DNA from: Minisyncoccota bacterium
GTDB lineage: Bacteria; Patescibacteriota; Minisyncoccia; UBA6257; 2-01-FULL-56-20
Direction of reading: 5' to 3'
Length of the DNA: 64,000 nt
Assembly (NCBI GenBank): GCA_035509435.1
Contig: DATJLR010000007.1
Location: forward strand, 65,555-129,554
This document shows, piece by piece, positions 3,127 through 44,887 of the stretch. Each line of letters begins with the position of its first letter. The first letter of the stretch is position 1. A program made the position numbers and the translations under genes. Under the pieces are notes generated by a model. It was given only the letters and a program-made list of their open reading frames with translations, was not told the DNA's origin and did no database searches.

Positions 3127-3441
3127 ACGTACCTCCGTTGGTGATTTATTTTTGAATTGTTAAACAGCTATTCAGCACGTTCCGTGCTGATGAGCATTCG
3201 CTATACCCAAGGATATTAGTGACCGCTCATCAACATAAAACGAAACCTCTCGCAAAGCCGAGAGGTTTTAAAAAGTGCTTTAGATATACACTCAACTCAG
3301 GCTTTGCAAAAAGTCATCTTAATCCACCACCAATTGACGGATGAAAGCCTGTTCATATCAATATCAAAAGTGTAATAAAGCCTTAGAAGATTGTCAAGCA
3401 CGATACACATCAACACGCCCTACGCTCTTTAAAGTATAAAG

Positions 3442-3480
3442 AAAACGGGGCTTGCAATTGCAGCAAGCCCCGACCCGAAA
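3442..3480 (-). terminator. Rho-independent terminator downstream of the 3492..4625 gene
   Basis: Perfect hairpin GGGGCTTGC-AATT-GCAAGCCCC, followed on the minus strand by a U-rich tract (gttttctttat). Confidence 0.5.
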
Positions 3481-3491
3481 AACACTTCCCC

Positions 3492-4625
3492 TCATGCCGC
3501 ACCTTCCTTTGCCCCGGTCACGATCACATAGGCGCCGGATTCGGACGATGCGAGTTGCCGATCAACCTGTAATACGGCGTCTCGGGCCCGCTCCGTACTA
3601 AATAGATAGTTCGGCAGAAGAGGGCTCACGGTGGGATAGGTCATCCTCCGATTGATCTTCATCCCGGCAGGGAAAAAATCTTCCGCTTGCTCCACGCTAT
3701 AAGGCTTGGCGTAGACGGAAAATATTTCAGCGCCCACCCGGACGTCGAGACAAGACTTCTGATTATTGATGCCCGCGGCCAAATTTACCGGCCACGGCAA
3801 GAAGTCCCATTGATAAACGAGGGCATCGAGGTTATAGAACGAGAAGAAAAATCTCCCCCCCTTCCGCAAAACCCTTTGGGCCTCGCCGATCAAGTCCCGA
3901 ATGTTCCAGATATCGCTCGCCGTTCCGAGATTCATCATCACGAAAGACGCCGAATCATTCTGGAGAGGAATGCCATCCTCAAGGTCAACTTCTTGGAATC
4001 GGACCCTTTGCAGCCATCGGTGGTCGAGTTTACGACTTGCATTCTCGACCATATGACCGCTGAGATCATATCCCACTGAACGTTTGAACTTATCTGCCAA
4101 CCGGAAGGTCTGGGCGCCAGTCGCACAGCCAAGGTCGACAAAAAGCTCAGCGTCGTTCAGCATGTCAACTTCCTGCTCAAGCATCAGGTTCTCAAAATCC
4201 CGATACGCACGGGAGGCGAAGAACTCGCTGCCGTATTGCTCGTCGTACACGGGAGCAATGCGTTCAGTGAGTTGCAAGAGGTTTTGTTTGAGAATTTGAT
4301 ACCATTCCTCCTCATCTTGGGTGTCATAGGGAGGGTTGTATATCCCTTGAAGCTGGATCATCTGCTGCTTGCACGATTCTCCGATAATGTTGTACAGCAC
4401 CGCCGCCGCGAAATTCGGGTTTAAACCGATTTTCTCGGCCAGCTTTTGCACCCGGAGCAGGCGCTCACCTTCTTTTTCGCGCCGGAAGATGGGTTGATCG
4501 GTGGCACGTTTGTACGCGCCAACATCGAGAGATAAAGCCATTCGATGAGCCATGAGAATAAGCAGAAGCTCATCCACGGACTCAAGCCTGGCCCCTAACT
4601 GCTCAAGGTTGAGCGATCGGATCAT
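3492..4625 (-). CDS. Chorismate mutase (AroQ-like N-domain) fused to a class I SAM-dependent methyltransferase
   Basis: First ~95 aa (LEQLGARLESVDELLLILMAHRMALSLDVGAYK...PIFRREKEGERLLRVQKLAEKIGLNPNFAAAVLYNIIGESCKQQ) fit the AroQ chorismate mutase pattern. The downstream region has methyltransferase motif I, LFVDLGCATGAQTF. Confidence 0.5.
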   Translation of the reverse strand: MIRSLNLEQLGARLESVDELLLILMAHRMALSLDVGAYKRATDQPIFRREKEGERLLRVQKLAEKIGLNPNFAAAVLYNIIGESCKQQMIQLQGIYNPPYDTQDEEEWYQILKQNLLQLTERIAPVYDEQYGSEFFASRAYRDFENLMLEQEVDMLNDAELFVDLGCATGAQTFRLADKFKRSVGYDLSGHMVENASRKLDHRWLQRVRFQEVDLEDGIPLQNDSASFVMMNLGTASDIWNIRDLIGEAQRVLRKGGRFFFSFYNLDALVYQWDFLPWPVNLAAGINNQKSCLDVRVGAEIFSVYAKPYSVEQAEDFFPAGMKINRRMTYPTVSPLLPNYLFSTERARDAVLQVDRQLASSESGAYVIVTGAKEGAA

Positions 4626-36229: not shown

Positions 36230-39200
36230 CTAGTTCGTCAAACCAGTGATGTTCTGGCTCGTAACCGGGATGGAAGTGGACGGGCTAAGCGACGAGATGG
36301 TTCCCGTCACGCCGTCAGTCCACGATACACCCTGGAGAAGAACCTGGTAGCTGCCCGTGCTGCCACCCGTGAACGTCGCCAAGTTGGTCGGTGCCGTGTA
36401 AGTTTTCACGAGTAAAGTCCTCGTGGAGCTATACGGAATCGTCCATTGATTGGAGTTGATGTTCGCGAAGGTGGCTGTACCAGTGCCCAAACCGGTCATC
36501 GTTGTGGTCGCAAGGAGCGTGGACGGGGCCGAGGCATCGTAGAGGCCAAGGACCTGTACCGTGCTCGATGTGATGATCGTGCCGGCAGTAGACAACTGCA
36601 CCGTGAGAACCTTCGGGTTGATGCTGCCACTTCCTGCCGTGAAGTTGAACTCGCCTACGATGTTACCCACACCGGAAATCGAGTTCGGGTTGGAGAAGGA
36701 AGCACCCGACACATCCAACGTCGTCTGGTAGACCGTGAACAGGTTGCCGATGTTGTTCGCAACGACATTCGTCGTGGTCGCCGTAGAGGCATTGGTGTAC
36801 TGGTAGCTCGTCAAAGCGAATGCATGCTTGCCGCCAGACGTCGCATACGGGTACGAATTCGTATCCGCAACGAGGTTGACGTAGGCCGTGGAGTTCGCCG
36901 GGACACTCAAGCCAGTGAGGTTGAAGACCAACACTCCGCTCGAGTTTTCCGTCGCCGTACCCAACACATTACCGCTCGTATCAGTCAACCGGTAGTTGAT
37001 GAAGGTCGAGTGGTCAGTTGCAGCCGTCGAGGTCGTCGAGGTCGAGCTGTCAAGGAGGGTCATCTGCGTTAACGTCTCGCTACCCGTCGTGCTTGCCACG
37101 AACTGGTACTGCGCAACCGTCACGCCAGTGATGCCCATGCCAAGGAAGGACGCCTGAGACGTACCTGCCGAGAGCGAACCGGTCAACGTGCCACCATTGC
37201 TGAATGTCACGTTCTGGCCACCAACAGGACCACCGAAGGTCACTGCATTGCCAGTCTGGGTCGAAGCATTCCAGCCAGTCAGGTTCGTCACGCTTGAGAC
37301 CGTCTGCGGGGTGAGGCTCGAATTCACATCAGCGTAGACGTCAAGCGTCACAGAGCCATTTGCGGCGATCGAGATCGGCGCAGAGCTGTTGAAGTTGTAC
37401 GTCGTATTCGCGGCAACCGTCGGCTGGGTTGTACCCACCTGCGTGCTGCCGTTCATCACGCGGAGGTTCCTGAGATAGGCTACCGCAGCGCTTGATGTGG
37501 TGTTGATCGAGATACCCGTCAAGTTGACCGGGTTAACCTGTCCTGCGGTGAACGTGTACGATCCAATCTTAACGTTGGATGCACCCGCCGTCGCCTGGAC
37601 CGGAGAACCGAGACCGTAGTTAAGCGAAGCAACGAGGTTCGTGCTGGAACTCAAGATCGTAAGCGAGTTGGCCGCGACTTGCGTAACCGACACGCTCGAG
37701 AACGTTGTGTAATCCTGCGCCGAAGAAGCGCCGCCGCCCAACGAAACCTGCACTGTGCCAGTGGCGCTCGAAGGGATGTCACCATAAACCGTCAAGACAC
37801 GGGTCGTGTTGGACGGAATGATGTAGTTCAAGCTGCCAGTGCCTTCGGTGCCGGTCGCATTGGCTCCGAGGTTGACGGTGGTGCCAATCTGCGCACCCTG
37901 ATCATCAACCACGCGGAAGTTGTTTATGCCGCTCGTCTGGGCGGTGGGGAAATCAAGTTCATTGAACTTGACGCTATCGCCCGAAGCGAGCACATCAAAC
38001 ACTCCGAGTACCTGATTGGTGTTTCCTGCCACCGCATAGGTGGTCGGAGAAGATGCATCCTTGGTGATCACGAGGCCACCATTGTTGATGCCGACACCAT
38101 AGAGGTAGACCGGGAAGCCGCCATTATTGCTGTAACCCTGCACACTTGCGCCAATTCCCACTCCATACGTGGTGTCTTCCGCGTGAACGTCAGACGACTG
38201 CTGAATGGAGAATTGGAAACTGCGTCCCGAACCGCCGGTAATGTCAGCATAAAGCGACAATACCGCCGATTGGCCGGAGGTCAGCATAAGAGGAGCGCCC
38301 GAAAGATCGAACGTTACCGTGTTGCTGCCACCCATCGAGGTCACCGTCGCGCCGAGCTGGGTCGAACCGTTCATCAGTTTGATGTTCTGAAGAGCATTCG
38401 AGTCGGTGCTGCCGATGTTCGTAAAGGTGATGCTGTTAAGCTTCACCGGGTTGTTACCAGCCTGAACCGTGAACTGGCCGACGAGATAATCCGTCTGGCC
38501 GGCGTTCACCGTGGTCGACGCTGACGTGTTGTTGGAGATCGTCAAGGTCGCAAGGTTATTAACCGATGCGATCGTGAACTGGCCACTCTCCAACGGGAAG
38601 TTGCCCGTGAAGGTGCCGCCGTTGGCCGTTATTGCGCTTGCGGAAGCTAAGCCAATCTGGAAGATATGGCCAGAATCTGCAGCGACAGTAACGTTATTGC
38701 TGCCAACGCCACCATTCCAGACATCAGCCGTAACGGTGACAACATACGTCGAATTCGCCGGAACCGTAAAGAGTCCTGCGCCGTTCGAGAAGCTGATCGA
38801 GCCATTGTTGATGCCGAGGTTGGACGCCAACTTGGTCGCGCCATTGTAAAGGTAGACGTTGTTCAAGTCGGAATCCTGCGAAAGGCCCGTGCGGGTCAAG
38901 ACCAAGTTCGTGACAGTGACGGGTGTCGCGCCAGCCGTGAAGTCAAGCTTCAAGACCGGAGTGTTCACCGCGCCTGCCGCGATATTGGACGAACCCGGGG
39001 TCTGTGCATCGACAGAGACAGACAACGGAGCGCCCGTAGGCGTCGTCGTACCGCCACCCGTCGTTGTGGTCGTCGTCGTGCTCATCGAGTTAACGAACGA
39101 GCGCGTGATAGGACCGAAGTAACCGACTGCCGGCGAGATGCCGTTCGCGGCCTGGAACTTGGCGAGCGCTGACTGGGTCAACGGGCCGAAGTAACCGGTC

Positions 39201-39499
39201 GGAGCAGAAACTGCCGTCAGGTATCCTTTGCTAATCAAAAGCTGCTGGAGGGACGAAACCTGCGCGCCTGTGCTGCCAATGGTGAGGTCACTGGTGAAGT
39301 CATAGGTCATCGAGGTGGACGTGCCACCGGAAGCATTCAACTGGCTCTGGAGTTGCTGGATCTGCGCGAGCAACGCCGCGATCTGAGCCTGGAGGCTCGC
39401 CGTGGTCTGTGCGCTTGCGACAGGCAGCGCGGCCGCACCTACCGCCCACAAAAGGGTGGTGGCGGTGAGTACCGCTGAAACCAATTTTTTAGAATTCAT
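36230..39499 (-). CDS. Giant secreted cell-surface protein. Signal peptide, coiled coil, PG_binding_1-like domain, then a long T/S/G/N-rich beta-repeat body
   Basis: 1089 aa. MNSKKLVSAVLTATTLLWAVGAAALPVASA. LQAQIAALLAQIQQLQSQL. GSTGAQVSSLQQLLISKGYL...GYFGPLTQSALAKFQAANGI resembles the putative peptidoglycan-binding domain. Confidence 0.65.
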   Translation of the reverse strand: MNSKKLVSAVLTATTLLWAVGAAALPVASAQTTASLQAQIAALLAQIQQLQSQLNASGGTSTSMTYDFTSDLTIGSTGAQVSSLQQLLISKGYLTAVSAPTGYFGPLTQSALAKFQAANGISPAVGYFGPITRSFVNSMSTTTTTTTGGGTTTPTGAPLSVSVDAQTPGSSNIAAGAVNTPVLKLDFTAGATPVTVTNLVLTRTGLSQDSDLNNVYLYNGATKLASNLGINNGSISFSNGAGLFTVPANSTYVVTVTADVWNGGVGSNNVTVAADSGHIFQIGLASASAITANGGTFTGNFPLESGQFTIASVNNLATLTISNNTSASTTVNAGQTDYLVGQFTVQAGNNPVKLNSITFTNIGSTDSNALQNIKLMNGSTQLGATVTSMGGSNTVTFDLSGAPLMLTSGQSAVLSLYADITGGSGRSFQFSIQQSSDVHAEDTTYGVGIGASVQGYSNNGGFPVYLYGVGINNGGLVITKDASSPTTYAVAGNTNQVLGVFDVLASGDSVKFNELDFPTAQTSGINNFRVVDDQGAQIGTTVNLGANATGTEGTGSLNYIIPSNTTRVLTVYGDIPSSATGTVQVSLGGGASSAQDYTTFSSVSVTQVAANSLTILSSSTNLVASLNYGLGSPVQATAGASNVKIGSYTFTAGQVNPVNLTGISINTTSSAAVAYLRNLRVMNGSTQVGTTQPTVAANTTYNFNSSAPISIAANGSVTLDVYADVNSSLTPQTVSSVTNLTGWNASTQTGNAVTFGGPVGGQNVTFSNGGTLTGSLSAGTSQASFLGMGITGVTVAQYQFVASTTGSETLTQMTLLDSSTSTTSTAATDHSTFINYRLTDTSGNVLGTATENSSGVLVFNLTGLSVPANSTAYVNLVADTNSYPYATSGGKHAFALTSYQYTNASTATTTNVVANNIGNLFTVYQTTLDVSGASFSNPNSISGVGNIVGEFNFTAGSGSINPKVLTVQLSTAGTIITSSTVQVLGLYDASAPSTLLATTTMTGLGTGTATFANINSNQWTIPYSSTRTLLVKTYTAPTNLATFTGGSTGSYQVLLQGVSWTDGVTGTISSLSPSTSIPVTSQNITGLTN

Positions 39500-39963
39500 T
39501 TTTTGTTTAATTTCGATTTAATTATTGGTATCGACCTGGTGGTCCGTTATGGACCAATTCAGCCGTCGACCTTTCCGTGCACCAAATCACGTTTTTATTT
39601 TGCTTGTTTCGGGAACCGTTTCCGGCACTTCACTCTGTTCGCTCTTTCGACCGCCTCGTGAGGGAAAGCGACGATCGATCAAACAGAAGAGAGCGACGAA
39701 AACGGGGTCTGGATCTAGTAATTGGGAAACCGGGAACCCGGTAAAAAAAGAGCCCGCTTTTGGCGAGGCTGAGTGAATGAGCAAACAAGAAATTCGACCA
39801 TAAAAAGTCTCCTCTCCCGATCCCACTTGCGGTTCAGCCTCACACCGAACCTTTAACCATTATACTGCATGTACTACGCTGTCCGTGCGAGAAAGGGTGT
39901 GGAAAACTATTGAATTGCCCTTTCCTGCATCGCACAGAATATAACGTCCCGGCGCGGGAAAGG

Positions 39964-40674
39964 TTACCTGTCCGCGAACGCCCCTTCCGGTCGCGCCGTA
40001 CGGTAAAAAACCGAGGGTCCGGCAACGCCAACCCGCTCTATTGCTCCCCGTTCAAGGAGCGTTTGCAGGTCATAGCGGATGGTCCGCTCGCTGCAATCCG
40101 GCAATATCTCCTGGATTTCCTTTAACCGGCAATTGCCGGATTGCCGGATGAGCGAAAGTATTGCGTCTTGCCGGATTGCCGAATCATTTGCCGATTGCCG
40201 GATTGCCGGTTCGCCATGCATATGCAATGGCTCTTTTTCCATTGCCGGTTCTTTCTCTGATCTTGATATCGGCGCCGGTGATGCCGATACCGGCGCCGGT
40301 TCCGCAGTGGCGTGTTCCGCGATCTCCGGCTTGGAGAAGATCTCTGCCACATTCACTTCATCGGTCTTCGGCGCGTTCCTGCGCTCGGCGACCGCGGCAT
40401 CGAGCGCGTAGATCTCGCGCATCATTACATCCGTGTTCGGCGTTCCGATGATGCCGGCGTCGCCGCCAAACTTGACGAGGCATTCCATCACCCGGAGCTC
40501 GCGGCCGGCGGCGGCATAATCCTCCCCTGCGGCAGCGGCCAAAAGCGCAGTGCCGGATACGCGCAATGATCCGGCAAAGTCCTTTTCCTGCATCTGCGCC
40601 GCCAGGCGGAACAGCGCGTACGCCACCTCGTATGCTTTCGTGAGGATAAAACGCTCTTTGCCGGAATATTCCAT
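39964..40674 (-). CDS. Transcriptional regulator with a C-terminal winged HTH (DeoR-like), a Pro/Ala linker and IRQS repeats
   Basis: Start reassigned to the ATG at 40672-40674 (MEYSGKERF...), which sits 7 nt after a TATAAT. C-terminal LKEIQEILPDCSERTIRYDLQTLLERGAIERVG is a DeoR-type HTH. Confidence 0.5.
   Translation of the reverse strand: MEYSGKERFILTKAYEVAYALFRLAAQMQEKDFAGSLRVSGTALLAAAAGEDYAAAGRELRVMECLVKFGGDAGIIGTPNTDVMMREIYALDAAVAERRNAPKTDEVNVAEIFSKPEIAEHATAEPAPVSASPAPISRSEKEPAMEKEPLHMHGEPAIRQSANDSAIRQDAILSLIRQSGNCRLKEIQEILPDCSERTIRYDLQTLLERGAIERVGVAGPSVFYRTARPEGAFADR
40134..40226. repeat. Array of the 8-mer ATTGCCGG (includes the perfect palindrome CCGGCAATTGCCGG) inside the regulator coding sequence
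   Basis: ccggcaattgccggattgccggat ... cttgccggattgccgaatcatttgccgattgccggattgccgg. The same 8-mer occurs in inverse orientation in the gene's promoter spacer (40690-40712). Confidence 0.6.
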
Positions 40675-40681
40675 GTGCAGG

Positions 40682-40710
40682 ATTATAATCCGGCAATCCG
40701 GCAATTGCAA
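40682..40710 (-). promoter_or_regulatory. Promoter TTGCAA-N17-TATAAT whose spacer is two tandem TTGCCGGA repeats (candidate auto-operator). The transcript is probably leaderless
   Basis: The minus strand reads TTGCAAttgccggattgccggatTATAATcctgcacATG. Confidence 0.45.
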
Positions 40711-40732
40711 GGTTCCAATGGCAAAAGCTCGA

Positions 40733-41299
40733 TCAGCCGAGGAATCCCAAATCCGGCAAGATGAGGTCCCGCAGGTAGATCCCGCCAACAAAGAACACCA
40801 TATCCAGGTCCGCACCCGTATTGAACGCACCCGGCTTTAACTTGTCGATAATTTCGGGAGAATGGCCCAGCACATCCTTTACCACAAAAAGGATGTCTTG
40901 CTCGGCGTCATAGACATTCTTGGCTCCTTTTGCCTTTATGAGCGCAAGGAGTTCGTCTTTCTTTGCGTCGATCACCTCCTTGACGCCGCTTTCCTTGAGC
41001 ACCTTTTCGCCATATGCATTGAAGCTCCGCCTCGAGTGAGCGGGGACGGCTTTGTCCTTCCAGAGGATCTCCATCTTTGGATACATTTCCATTACCATCG
41101 GATATATTTCTTTTACCATGGGATATATTTCGTCCATTTTTGAACGCACGTCCTTCATGTCGGTTTTCAACGTGCCGATATCCGCCTGCATCAGCATCGT
41201 CCGCTCATCGATCCGCGCGATAAGCTCGCGCGTGTTGCCCAAGAGCAGCGTGGCGATCCAATTTCCTATTTTTGAAAGCGTTGATAGGTTTTGATCCAT
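40733..41299 (-). CDS. Hypothetical protein with short internal repeats (EIYPMV)
   Basis: 188 aa. DEIYPMVKEIYPMVMEMYPKMEI matches the DNA repeats at 41095-41140. Confidence 0.35.
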   Translation of the reverse strand: MDQNLSTLSKIGNWIATLLLGNTRELIARIDERTMLMQADIGTLKTDMKDVRSKMDEIYPMVKEIYPMVMEMYPKMEILWKDKAVPAHSRRSFNAYGEKVLKESGVKEVIDAKKDELLALIKAKGAKNVYDAEQDILFVVKDVLGHSPEIIDKLKPGAFNTGADLDMVFFVGGIYLRDLILPDLGFLG

Positions 41300-41395
41300 G
41301 GTAAGAGTTGTTTTTTTGGCAACAACCCCACCCTAGCACACTCACATTAAAAATATATTAAAAGAATCGCGCGTAAAAACTCCGGCGGAAATCCG

Positions 41396-42121
41396 TTAGA
41401 GCGTCCAATGGGCCGAGGCAAGCACGATGACAAGCAGCGAGAAAAGCACGGTGCCCGTGGCGAGCGCCTTTGTGCGGGAAAGCTCCCCGAACACATATTG
41501 CGGCACGACGTCTATAAGGACGGCGGCCGCAAGGAAGACGACCGCCGACTGGTAGAGGAAATCGAGCGGAAGGAAAAGCCCCACAATGAGAAGCTGCCAC
41601 ATCAGGATGAACGACAGGCCGCCGAGCATGCGACGGAACGAATGCGCCTCGCGCGCCGCGCCATCCGGCACCGCGGAAAAATGTTTGATGAATCCCGCGG
41701 CCATGACGCTCACCGCCCCGGCGGCGATCAGGCTGTAAAGCAGCGCCTTCCCGCCGAGCGCGCCGCCGGTCGTGACGTACAGCTCCCGCACGACGAGATA
41801 CGACAGCACAAGGATCAGGACTTCGTACGCGGTCCGGCGGTCGATGATGATGAGATCCTTGATGAGGAGCATAAAGTAGAATATCGCGGCAAAGAGGATC
41901 GCTGCCAATATGCCCTGCGCGGTCGCAAGGCAAAGCAGGAGGAGCACCAAAAAGGGCGCCAGAACCTTTCGGGCGCCCGTCACAGGAACAAGGGAGAGGT
42001 ATAGCGCGACAAGAAGGAACAGCCAGAATGGCAGCGCCCACCAGGCGACGCCGAACACGACGGCCTTAATGACTGAAGACCAGCTGATCCGCTTTGAAAT
42101 TGACTTTAACCTTTCCGCCAT
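41396..42121 (-). CDS. Polytopic integral membrane protein (hypothetical)
   Basis: About 7 TM helices. The start is uncertain (track start 42163 overlaps the clpB 3' end; an internal Met at 42121 is possible). Confidence 0.4.
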   Translation of the reverse strand: MAERLKSISKRISWSSVIKAVVFGVAWWALPFWLFLLVALYLSLVPVTGARKVLAPFLVLLLLCLATAQGILAAILFAAIFYFMLLIKDLIIIDRRTAYEVLILVLSYLVVRELYVTTGGALGGKALLYSLIAAGAVSVMAAGFIKHFSAVPDGAAREAHSFRRMLGGLSFILMWQLLIVGLFLPLDFLYQSAVVFLAAAVLIDVVPQYVFGELSRTKALATGTVLFSLLVIVLASAHWTL

Positions 42122-44732
42122 CTTTGAATTCGCCGCGGATGATCTTGTCCGCCAGCTTATCAAGGATAACCTTCTGCATCAATCGCTTCAAGGGGCGCGC
42201 GCCGTACTCCGGGCTGAACCCTTCTTTTGCAAGGTGTGCGCGCGCCGCCGGTTCCACCTCCAGCTTGATATGCCGGTCAGCGAGGCGCTTCTCGATCGCG
42301 CGGATCTGGATGTCCACGATCTTCTCGATATCGTTCCGATGGAGCGGGTTGAAAATGATCACGTCATCAATACGGTTAAGGAATTCCGGGCGGAAACTGC
42401 CGCGAAGCGCTTCCGTCACTTTATCGCGATACTCCCCTTCTTCCACCGCCGCCTCCGCGCCCTCCGCGCTGAATCCGATGCGCGACATCGCCTTGAGGTA
42501 CTCGCTGCCGACATTCGATGTCATGATGATGATGCAGTTCTTGAAGTTGACGGTCTTGCCCTTGCTGTCGGTAAGACGGCCATTGTCCAATACTTGAAGA
42601 AGCAGGTTGAACACTTCCGGATGCGCTTTTTCTATCTCGTCAAAAAGGATCAGGCTGTACGGCCGGTGGCGGACGATCTCGGTCAGCTGGCCACCTTCCT
42701 CGTGGCCGACATAGCCCGGGGGCGAGCCGATCAGGCGGGAAACGGCATGGCGTTCCATGTATTCCGACATATCCACGCGCACGAGCGCCTTTTCGTCATT
42801 GAACATGAACTCCGCAAGCGTGCGGGCGAGCTCGGTCTTGCCGACGCCGGTCGGCCCGAGGAACATGAATGACCCGATCGGCCGGTTCTCGTCCGAAAGT
42901 CCCGCGCGCGAGCGGCGGAGCGCCGACGCGACGGATGCGATCGCCTCGTTCTGGCCGATCACCCGCTCGTGGAGCACATCTTCGATGCGGATGAGCTTGT
43001 CGGCGTCCGTCTCGAGCATCCGCTTGATGGGAATGCCCGTCCAGACGGCGACGACGGCTGCGACATCCTCTTTATCCACCGCTTCTTTAAGAAAACGGTC
43101 ACGCGAGGCGCCGGAAGCGGCAGCGCCTTTCTTTCCTTTCGCAGCGGCCGGGCCGCCGAAGTTCTTTTTCTCGAACATCGCAAAATCCTTCTCGGCGGCC
43201 GGAAGCTCGCCGTACATGATCTGCGCCACGCGCTCAAGATTGCCATCGCGTTCCGCCATTTCCGCTTCGCGCTTCAAGTTGTCCACTTTTTGGCGAAGCT
43301 GGTGCAGGGTTTCGAACTTGATCTTCTCCGAATGCCACTTGCTCGACAGCTCGTCATTCTTGTCTTTTAACACCGCAAGTTGCCTGTCTATCTCTTTGAT
43401 GCGGTCGGCGGTGGCGGTCTTTTGCCCTTCCTGCGAGAGCGCCTGCTTTTCTATCTCGAGGCGCGTGATCTCGCGGCGCGCCCGGTCGATCTCCTTCGGC
43501 AGGCTTTCCGACTCCAGCCGGCGCGCCGCGGCGGCCTCGTCGATCAGGTCTACGGCCTTGTCCGGCAGAAAGCGGTCGGTGATGTAGCGCGCGGAAAGGT
43601 TGACGGCCTCCACGATCGCCTCGTCGCTGATGCGCATGCCGTGATGGATCTCGTATTTTTCTTTGAGCCCGCGCAAAATGGCGATCGAGTCCTCGATCGT
43701 CGGCTCCTCCACCATGATCGGCTGGAAGCGCCGCTCGAGCGCCGGGTCCTTCTCTATATATTTCTGATATTCGCGCACGGTCGTCGCGCCGATCGCGTGG
43801 AGCTCGCCGCGCGCGAGCGCCGGTTTCAATAAATTTGACGCGTCGATGGCGCCTTCCGCGGCACCTGCTCCGACAATGGTATGGATCTCATCTATAAACA
43901 GGATGATGTTGCCGGCGGCGTTCTTTACCTCCTTCATGAACGCCTTTAGCCGATCCTCAAATTCTCCGCGAAACTTGGTTCCCGCGATGAGCGAGCCAAG
44001 GTCCAGCATCAATACCTGCTTGCCCTTGAGCAGCTCGGGAACATCACCCGATGCGATGCGCTGGGCCAATCCCTCTACTATTGCGGTCTTTCCCACGCCC
44101 GGCTCGCCGATCAGGCACGGATTGTTCTTGGTACGGCGCGAGAGCACCTGCATCAGGCGGCGCAGCTCTTCCTCGCGGCCGATCACCGGATCCAGCTCCC
44201 CCGCCTTTGCTTTGTCGCTCAGGTTGATGGCATATTTTTCCAAAACCTGGAATTTGCTCTCCGGCGTTTCATCGGTGACGCGCACGGATCCGCGCAGCTG
44301 AGCAAGCACGCGGAACGCGCTCTCGCGCCGTACACCGAACTTCTCAAGCAATGACTTTGCGGTGCCGGCAACATCAAGCAGGGCAAGCAGAAGATGCTCG
44401 CACGAGACGAACTCGTCCTTTTGCTGGGCGGCGACCTTGGCCGCCTGGTCGAGCACCTTCATCAGCTCCTGCGAAAGATAGAGCTGGCCGAGCGCTGAAT
44501 TGCTGACGATCGGCGGGATGCGATCGAGCTCAATGTCGATCGCCTCATCCAACTGTTCCAGATTGACGCCGCAGCGCTCAAGCACGGGGATCACGAGCGA
44601 CTGCTCATCCTCAAGCAGGGCCGCGAGCAGATGTACCGACTTCAATTCTCCGTGATTCTTTTTTGCCGCGATCTCCTGGGCGTTCTGCAGGGCCTCCTGT
44701 GCTTTTATGGTAAAACGATGGAAGTTTGGCAT
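42066..44732 (-). CDS. clpB: ATP-dependent chaperone ClpB
   Basis: 888 aa. Two AAA+ modules ([15 protein letters not shown] and [16 protein letters not shown]) with the long coiled-coil M-domain between them. Confidence 0.95.
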
Positions 44733-44810
44733 GTGATTTTTGATAGTGATACTAAAGTATACGCCGCAGGAGATTAAAAGGTTCTTAACTTAATTATACC
44801 TTTTATACCC

Positions 44811-44827
44811 TATACCCCGCGGGTATA
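44811..44827. promoter_or_regulatory. Palindrome TATACCC-CGC-GGGTATA in the clpB upstream region (candidate operator)
   Basis: A perfect 7-3-7 inverted repeat about 80 bp upstream of the clpB ATG. It does not match the CIRCE, CtsR or HAIR consensus. Confidence 0.3.
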
Positions 44828-44887
44828 TATCAAATTATAGCCGGAAAAGGCTCATTGTCAATCTATGGGCGAGATTGCTAATGCCGC

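Follow-up and report, generated by a model that had tools for sequence, protein, structure and literature searches.

We analyzed a 64-kb stretch of the genome of a Minisyncoccota bacterium (contig DATJLR010000007.1, positions 65,555 to 129,554), hereafter the window, whose own numbering is used for all coordinates. The subject of the study was a gene on its minus strand that encodes a helix-turn-helix (HTH) regulator and carries many copies of a short motif, both in its promoter and in its own coding sequence. An initial annotation of this DNA had reported motif arrays in these two places, and both were found again. The gene, its promoter and the motif copies in the promoter are as follows.

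39964–40674, minus strand: regulator coding sequence, 236 amino acids (aa) plus stop, defined by the open reading frame (ORF) and its translation, the Pfam HTH_DeoR match and the homolog alignment.
40682–40710, minus strand: sigma-70-type promoter, with −35 hexamer TTGCAA (40710–40705), 17-nt spacer ttgccggattgccggat and −10 hexamer TATAAT (40687–40682).
40689–40704, minus strand: putative operator of the promoter, a tandem pair of TTGCCGGA units occupying the spacer at −30 and −22 from the ATG; the same dimer lies at −30 in 25 homologs (≤2 mismatches).

A search of representative genomes returned 79 homologous loci (472 kb in total), whose taxon labels were, with few exceptions, Paceibacterota, Parcubacteria, Minisyncoccia, Liptonbacteria or Harrisonbacteria. 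Gene-level counts over homologs were based on 77 genes (promoter search and permutation) or 75 promoter regions (hexamer positions). Alignment A1 held 27 homologs, the codon-conservation set 48 and the RNA alignment 44 sequences, and conservation of individual motif units was scored in 10 close and 37 distant homologs.

The ORF originally listed for the gene began at a GTG (39964–40830), and this longer frame was not borne out. All 27 homologs in A1 begin at the ATG at 40674, where M1 is invariant, so that this ATG is the true start. The product is identical to a database protein (P0001) that one source names ‘DeoR family transcriptional regulator, Candidatus Paceibacterota’. Its sole Pfam match was HTH_DeoR (PF08220) at residues 168–215 (E = 1.1e-8; 35.1 bits against a cut-off of 21), which all 27 aligned homologs also matched; together with an AlphaFold2 model, this match agrees with the earlier reading of the protein as a winged-HTH regulator. 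Among NCBIfam equivalogs the GlpR HTH was the best match, over the HTH part only, and scores did not exceed 26 bits against cut-offs of 260–350. Neither DeoRC nor any other Pfam domain was found in residues 1–160. The AlphaFold2 monomer model had a mean predicted local distance difference test score of 81 (above 95 at residues 11–100 and ~84–95 at residues 161–230, as 10-residue block means), and comprised a four-helix bundle (residues 5–100), a disordered linker (119–158) and a DeoR-type winged HTH (162–226). In two homologs the gene is disrupted, by a frameshift in the linker of L016 (~3400–3590) and by an in-frame TAG in L002 (~3330); these are either pseudogenes or assembly errors.

The C-terminal domain structurally matched generic winged-helix regulators. 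The N-terminal bundle best matched 2gsc and 2rld (‘S23 ribosomal protein family’), with target-normalized template modeling scores of 0.66–0.79 over ~100–112 alignment columns, a sequence identity of 13–15% and a weak Foldseek E-value of ~7e-3. No Pfam family, PF05635 (S23/bAvd-like) included, matched the N-terminal domain at E ≤ 1 in any of the 27 members, and a profile search against PDB sequences gave only spurious matches to alanine-rich DARPin or de novo proteins. Because the four-helix bundle is a common fold, homology to S23/bAvd proteins and pentamer formation are not established; the bundle is likely to be an oligomerization module.

A HMMER search with the N-terminal domain alone returned 205 clusters at 50% identity, nearly all of 200–300 aa with the domain at the N-terminus, and 107 of the 205 carried the helix S-E-R-T-I-R-Y-D. 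This recognition helix is invariant or nearly so in the family, even among the homologs gathered in this way; since it varies so little, its co-variation with the motif could not be read out. We concluded that the regulator belongs to a two-domain family of its own, in which the recognition helix hardly varies. It falls outside the canonical DeoR family: its domains come in reverse order (HTH C-terminal) and DeoRC is missing, leaving the HTH alone in common. Two cysteines, C65 in the bundle and C182 in HTH helix 1, were also invariant or nearly so across the family, and the pair could act in redox switching. Because the C182 codon, TGC, belongs to the DNA motif as well, conservation of this residue may be driven by the DNA.

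The order on the minus strand is cc-TTGCAA-ttgccggattgccggat-TATAAT-cctgcac-ATG, with the ATG 7 nt past the −10 and a 17-nt spacer made of two tandem TTGCCGGA units and one base, exactly the layout first described. In a promoter scan this was the best candidate in 39300–41500 (10 of 12 consensus matches, 17-nt spacer), and because it is close to consensus the promoter is intrinsically strong. It is housed in the 58-nt gap between the regulator start and the stop of an upstream 188-aa ORF, which ends at 40733; a terminator separating the upstream gene from the promoter was not detected. With the −10 ending 7 nt before the ATG there is no room for a leader, and the transcript is predicted to be leaderless. 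This part of the initial annotation gained strong backing from conservation: a TTGnnn-16/18-TAnnnT promoter was present upstream of 69 of 77 homologs, and in 44 of these 69 the −10 ends 6–9 nt ahead of the ATG. Only 3 of 60 genes in the window share this promoter-to-ATG layout; thus, the leaderless geometry is both gene-specific and conserved.

The motif in the spacer is conserved as well. The spacer reads TTGCCGGATTGCCGGAT in close relatives and TTTGCCGCATTGCCGGAT in many relatives that are only 35–45% identical. The core hexamer, TTGCCG or CGGCAA, was present in 55 of 75 homolog promoter regions, the frequency in control segments being 10.8%. Relative to the ATG, its sense copies peak at −30, −22 and −7 and its antisense copies at +11 (CGGCAA in 31 of 75). 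A few lineages (L041, L046, L062, L065) have the spacer motif in the opposite orientation.

Counts over the window showed how strongly the motif is concentrated at this gene. The 8-mer ATTGCCGG occurred 12 times against 3.97 ± 1.83 expected, a number reached in none of 100 shuffles, and nine of the 12 copies fell in 40098–40705. The 16-mer TTGCCGGATTGCCGGA (≤3 mismatches) was found nine times where 1.21 were expected, six of them within the regulator gene, and 16 of the 115 TTGCCGGA units (≤1 mismatch) fell in 39964–40760. The gene holds 13 cores, of which the densest and most conserved cluster, at +464 to +577, lies in the DNA for the linker and the first HTH helices. Relative to the ATG, sense units lie at −85, −30, −22, +97, +542, +570 and +649, and antisense units at +9, +117, +425, +464, +472, +491, +499, +526 and +534. 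The sense unit at +97 and the antisense unit at +117 form a convergent pair, and the +9 unit faces the spacer units in convergent orientation, with the −10 and the start site between them. Segments of the promoter (40688–40708) and of the coding sequence (40129–40149), 538 nt apart, form a perfect 21-nt inverted repeat, and 13-nt inverted repeats also occur within the regulator coding sequence. The units outside the spacer were the following.

40752–40759, minus strand: unit at −85, in L-P-D codons at the 3′ end of the upstream 188-aa gene; also seen in L004.
40658–40665, plus strand: unit at +9, in S-G-K codons that read TCCGGCAA on the coding strand; retained by 8 of the 10 close homologs and 16 of the 37 distant ones.
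40550–40577: convergent pair TGCCGGAT-N10-ATCCGGCA, codons F-A-G ... S-G-T, in the N-terminal domain; inverted repeat I8, kept mainly in close homologs.
40242–40249, plus strand: single antisense unit TTGCCGGT in the linker; not conserved.
40195–40210, plus strand: antisense intragenic dimer, encoding P-A-I-R-Q-S in the linker; repeats D1 and I6, kept in 4–5 of 10 close homologs.
40168–40183, plus strand: antisense intragenic dimer in the S-A-I-R-Q codons, where HTH helix 1 begins; its +499 unit is retained by all 10 close homologs and by 25 of the 37 distant ones.
40125–40148: best-conserved site inside the gene, reading ATCCGGCA-ATCCGGCA-ATTGCCGG on the coding strand (codons I-R-Q-S-G-N-C-R); includes the palindrome at 40126–40139 and provides an arm of the 21-nt inverted repeat (I2).
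40097–40104, minus strand: sense unit TTGCCGGA in L-P-D codons that separate HTH helix 2 from helix 3; retained by 8 of the 10 close homologs and 31 of the 37 distant ones.
40018–40025, minus strand: unit TTGCCGGA, encoding V-A-G near the C-terminus; kept in close relatives only.

Several details of the initial annotation were thereby refined. The 14-bp palindrome CCGGCAATTGCCGG is present, and its position is 40126–40139; the interval first given for it, 40134–40226, is the span of the repeat cluster. The intragenic copies had been described as uniformly opposite to those in the promoter, which was true of five of the seven exact ATTGCCGG copies, the other two (40098 and 40126) having the same orientation. 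The IRQS-type peptide repeats were seen as described (AIRQS, AIRQD and LIRQS at residues 155–179). The array had been placed in the last third of the gene; its repeats span the whole gene, in an architecture that is family-wide. The linker-coding DNA also contains a 21-nt tandem duplication (TGATCTTGATATCGGCGCCGG / TGATGCCGATACCGGCGCCGG; repeat D7) at 40258–40299, which gives a PAPVSASPAPIS repeat and is unrelated to the 8-mer motif.

Within the window, the GGCAATTGCC palindrome and the 16-mer dimer are essentially confined to the regulator gene. The remaining weak dimer matches (49245, 50365 and 55204) all lie inside long ORFs, the clpB promoter lacks the motif, and we found in the window no hexamer cluster outside the regulator gene and no palindrome or convergent pair at any other promoter. 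The same restriction was seen across the family. Allowing ≤2 mismatches, the 472 kb of homologous loci held 143 dimer hits, of which 25 were in the promoter (~−30), 108 in the regulator coding sequence and 10 elsewhere, chiefly in a paralog downstream or at a distance of a few hundred bp at most. The density of the 8-mer per 200 bp was 1–2.4 at the promoter (−200 to 0) and at +400 to +600, 0.5–0.7 in the rest of the gene and ~0.03 in the flanks. No other dimer or hexamer cluster was seen within ±10 kb of the gene in two complete-genome (chromosome) contexts. A motif equally dense throughout the genome, which the first description had named as the outcome that would undermine it, was thus not what we observed in the window, the homologous loci or these wider flanks, and a compositional artifact was ruled out by the shuffles and the flank controls. 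We also ran a metagenome-wide scan for a regulon with the exact 16-mer; 118 of the 120 contigs returned were from unrelated organisms (GC fraction 0.31–0.70) with one chance match each, and the scan was therefore uninformative on this point. The motif travels with the regulator family among homologs down to ~25–30% identity.

An extra dimer site was seen just downstream, ~1 kb past the regulator start, in two loci with longer members of ~300 aa (L057 and L070). In L057 it sits in a second ORF that reads FIRQSGNCRI and runs off the contig end, and no such ORF was seen in L070. The extra site is possibly a tandem paralog or a duplicated HTH segment.

Conserved peptides, EPAIRQSANDSAIRQxAILxxIRQSGNCRL and then LPD, are encoded by the intragenic units, and four observations showed the DNA sequence, too, to be under constraint. 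In the invariant peptide IRQSGNC the codons CGG CAA TCC GGC AAT TGC are almost fixed. The top-codon frequencies over I176–C182 in 48 homologs were ATC.73, CGG.87, CAA.98, TCC.91, GGC.83, AAT.95 and TGC.98, and those at R168/Q169 (CGG.85, CAA.91) and L191/P192 (TTG.95, CCG.95) were similarly high. As a control, five other conserved arginines use 5–6 codons each, with a top codon at.28–.47. A within-gene synonymous permutation, which preserves the protein and codon composition of each gene, gave 188 TTGCCG/CGGCAA hexamers in the homolog coding sequences compared to the 807 observed, and 70 of 77 genes exceeded all 200 of their permutations.

The hexamer is also read in all six frames (LPD, I/F-A-E/G, NCR, RQS, S/P-A-I and SGN/SGK). 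In some lineages the same tandem DNA (TCCGGCAATCCGGCAA) is read in another frame, as linker repeats ESGNPA(M/I) rather than IRQS (L011 3340–3450; also P0097 and P0108). The peptide period of eight residues is explained by the translation of a perfect (ATCCGGCA)3, which would be IRQSGNPA. The enrichment persisted in 75 of 77 homologs, including those without IRQSGNC, at 6–37 per kb as opposed to 0–4.5 per kb in the flanks. The most deeply conserved units were those at +9, +499, +526/+534, +542 and +570. These data show that the intragenic sites are under DNA-level (synonymous-site) selection.

We consider it probable, on balance, that the locus is a leaderless, negatively autoregulated transcription-factor gene, conserved across Paceibacteria (Parcubacteria), with an operator in the promoter spacer and auxiliary intragenic operators. 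The regulator's own product would bind the motif, and this binding would repress transcription; the invariant recognition helix SERTIRYD is matched by an invariant motif core. Steric repression classically involves a site placed in the spacer of an intrinsically strong promoter. The sites in the spacer and around the start (−30, −22, −7, +11) are placed to exclude RNA polymerase, and negative autoregulation is therefore the best-supported mechanism. The proposed recognition element would have the core TTGCCG, here extended to TTGCCGGA, and bound protein would cover the −35/−10 region and the start site, excluding the polymerase. The intragenic sites could serve as auxiliary operators that raise the local repressor concentration, with a multivalent oligomer stabilizing the repressor on the promoter via a ~0.5 kb loop; alone or besides looping, they may block elongating polymerase, and titration of the protein would be a further possible role. 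The outcome would be tight, buffered self-repression, and a wider regulon may also exist.

Autorepression with DNA looping had been proposed from the start, and the two halves of that proposal fared differently. The confinement of the motif to the gene and the selection on its DNA are as expected of an operator for the gene's own product, for which binding is presumed. The looping half was left without specific support, because helical phasing is absent: the promoter-to-intragenic dimer distance (489–672 bp in 24 homologs) showed no phase preference (Rayleigh R = 0.16, p ~0.55). Loops of ~0.5 kb are little affected by helical phase, and a roadblock or cooperative multi-site binding fits equally well. 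This lack of phasing is one of several points that weigh against the proposed autoregulation. The transcription start site is a prediction from the DNA, and it is we who infer that the motif belongs to the regulator's own protein over another factor. The lineage L009/L012–L015 has a diverged spacer TTGCCGCATTTCCGTGG yet retains the intragenic site, so promoter and intragenic sites are not strictly coupled. No second target was found in the part of the host genome that was scanned (≤~64 kb). Because self-only regulation would be biologically incomplete, either the array serves some other purpose or there is a regulon in other parts of the genome. Lastly, an 8-bp spacing of tandem units is unusually tight for a pair of winged-HTH domains, which complicates any model of binding stoichiometry and geometry.

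An alternative that we regard as unlikely is that the array is primarily a cis-acting landmark, with which a multivalent protein would form one large nucleoprotein complex (a nucleation or centromere-like site, or a self-titrating decoy buffer), autoregulation being a side effect. The ~10–16 sites per gene go far beyond what repression needs, no other sites were found in the window, the syntenic loci or the flanks of the two genomes, and the neighborhood of the locus on the chromosome is fixed. The N-terminal bundle also resembles four-helix bundles of the 2gsc/2rld type, and bAvd, a protein related to these, is pentameric. However, the placement of units in the promoter (spacer, −7, +11) is exactly what repression needs and is the most position-specific feature of the array, and we saw no link to an origin or partition system, the cumulative GC skew falling monotonically across the window. 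We give an equally small chance to a self-contained module in which a multivalent oligomer, possibly a pentameric bundle hub with five tethered winged-HTH domains, would wrap ~10–16 sites in the promoter and, by way of overlapping codes, in the sequence for its own DNA-binding domain. Such a module would have no other genomic targets and would act as a single-copy chromosomal landmark or a self-titrating concentration buffer rather than as the head of a conventional regulon, and retention of its sites would have fixed IRQSGNC.

It is less probable still that the motif is bound by another protein, such as a global regulator or a nucleoid protein, with the regulator gene as its main target. Self-binding is something that we infer, and the motif was not found at other promoters, which might have tied it to the HTH. 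However, the motif is inherited with the gene family to ~25–30% identity and is near-absent from neighboring DNA, and recognition helix and motif core are both invariant. Because motif and gene are co-inherited and the helix does not vary, a trans factor with one target gene in every genome is less parsimonious than autoregulation.

We judged it very improbable that the constraint acts on RNA. The intragenic inverted units might form a conserved mRNA hairpin, or the promoter copy in a read-through transcript might pair with the 21-nt segment 538 nt downstream and mask the start codon. The 21-nt and 13-nt inverted repeats, and the failure to find a terminator ahead of the promoter, are as this explanation would have it. 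However, RNAalifold gave no consensus structure for 44 homologs, and the candidate 13-bp stem paired in 70.1% of cells compared to 69.8% in shuffles, with no excess covariation. Both promoter units have changed to TTGCAGGA in L006 without a compensating change in the coding sequence, the orientation of the spacer motif is flipped in some lineages, and the spacer is not transcribed from the regulator's own promoter. A search of Rfam (E ≤ 1) over 39000–41500 gave no match. The flips of the spacer, together with the lack of RNA structure and covariation, indicate that the target is read as double-stranded DNA.

Scarcely credible is the idea that conserved peptide repeats and codon bias gave rise to the DNA repeats incidentally, or that these form a slippage-prone contingency locus as first suggested: the peptides EPAIRQSANDSAIRQ...IRQSGNCRL are indeed conserved, and gain or loss of an 8-nt unit would shift the frame, but the first version is ruled out by the synonymous permutation and the use of six frames (as also by SGNPA in other lineages and the unfixed control arginine codons), and the second by the presence of at most two units in tandem and the lack of unit-number variation among close relatives, the closest of which (81–82% identical) have an identical repeat layout, while the L016 frameshift and the L002 in-frame stop both lie away from the repeat units.

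The proposed autoregulation has partial parallels in known systems. E. coli DeoR and GlpR have the same type of HTH (Pfam HTH_DeoR; best NCBIfam match, the GlpR HTH), and DeoR/GlpR-type repressors likewise have several tandem operators at the promoter. They use auxiliary operators hundreds of bp away, some in coding DNA (DeoR O1/O2/OE; operators internal to glpD), and they repress as oligomers that loop DNA. GlpR has four operators, O1–O4, at glpFK (PMC4117983). As in the DNA-looping repressors of the DeoR, GalR, LacI and GlpR type, there are at least two candidate operators here that lie tens to hundreds of bp apart. In contrast to DeoR and GlpR, the present regulator has its HTH at the C-terminus, a family-specific four-helix bundle and no DeoRC sugar-phosphate sensor domain. 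Its sites are in its own gene rather than in a catabolic operon, and they number ~10 or more, with 8-bp tandem spacing and a leaderless start.

Repressors that curb their own production from a site within the repressor gene or at its end are also known, namely PurR and LacI (at O3), and we propose the same here. The purR gene of E. coli has two sites downstream of its own promoter, one of them in the coding sequence. LacI O3 is a roadblock site by which the repressor limits its own synthesis (PMC3711431). Those genes have one or two sites and none in the promoter spacer, and neither family-wide synonymous-site constraint nor shaping of the sequence of the DNA-binding domain has been reported for them.

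Short direct-repeat arrays bound by a (winged-)helix protein are also known from plasmids, as in P1 RepA with incC/incA and in ParR-parC of plasmid R1. One array of such a system holds the promoter of the protein (autorepression), and a second array beyond the gene can pair with the first. These are plasmid replication or partition modules with 11–19-bp units outside the coding sequence, whereas the present locus is chromosomal and syntenic, its 8-bp units are intragenic, and the sampled neighborhoods have no replication or partition genes. MraZ, a small, widely conserved, oligomeric protein, represses its own promoter via a series of short direct repeats; it differs from the present regulator in its SpoVT/AbrB-like fold and in repeats that lie upstream of the gene, at a ~10-bp periodicity, with none intragenic. 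Bundles like those of the S23 ribosomal protein family and bAvd (2gsc, 2rld) superpose on the N-terminal domain, a weak fold resemblance without profile membership. The present locus is set apart from all compared systems by its domain architecture, the number and density of its sites, the dual-coding sites in its own DNA-binding domain, the leaderless start and the phylogenetic setting.

To our knowledge, almost no transcription factor of the candidate phyla radiation (CPR) has a known binding site. A literature search found nothing relevant on the motif, on the regulation of the regulator family or on CPR regulators of this type. The comparative evidence yields a testable pairing of protein and motif (core TTGCCG, extended TTGCCGGA) for a Paceibacteria-wide regulator. 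It also offers an unusually clear natural case of overlapping codes, in which selection on a binding site appears to have locked the synonymous sites in the codons for an invariant peptide of the protein's own DNA-binding domain, and such selection probably helped fix the IRQSGNC peptide. If the intragenic sites are functional, they would extend the auxiliary-operator and roadblock paradigm of LacI, PurR, GlpR and DeoR to an extreme density of sites, and the locus would be a compact, self-contained autoregulatory part with a leaderless start.

The surroundings of the gene are conserved. The order clpB, a 255-aa membrane protein without a Pfam family, the regulator and a secreted PG_binding_1 protein of ~1000 aa (36230–44732) is strongly conserved among the homologous loci (L001–L079, L200, L201), and in two loci an HU-like gene comes next. 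The 188-aa gene directly upstream of the regulator (40733–41299) is variable and was detected in only 5 of 79 loci.

A further conserved element lies at 39745–39863 (minus strand), in the 465-nt gap between the regulator stop and a 1089-aa gene, and was common to 17 Paceibacteria loci. It consists of a TATAAT promoter followed by a conserved AAGGTTCGGTGTGAGGCTGAACC, a variable insert and a conserved terminator, CAGCCTCGCC-AAAA-GCGAG-T-run. Its GAGGCTG pairs with the CAGCCTC of the terminator 5′ arm (minimum free energy −40.2 kcal/mol, z = −2.06), and Rfam held no match to the element. It could be a small RNA of ~110 nt, or else a leader of the giant surface-protein gene that acts as an attenuator or in a riboswitch-like manner. 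Additional conserved non-coding blocks, AACCCCGTTTTCGTC, TGCCGGAAACGG and AAAGGTCGACGGC...GGTCGATA, lie at 39500–39745 (minus strand), upstream of the 1089-aa gene, and are common to homologous loci. The starts of clpB (44733–44887), the 188-aa gene (41300–41395) and the 1089-aa gene (39500–39530) are preceded by A-rich sequence without a recognizable Shine-Dalgarno, and the host genome may rely little on Shine-Dalgarno pairing.

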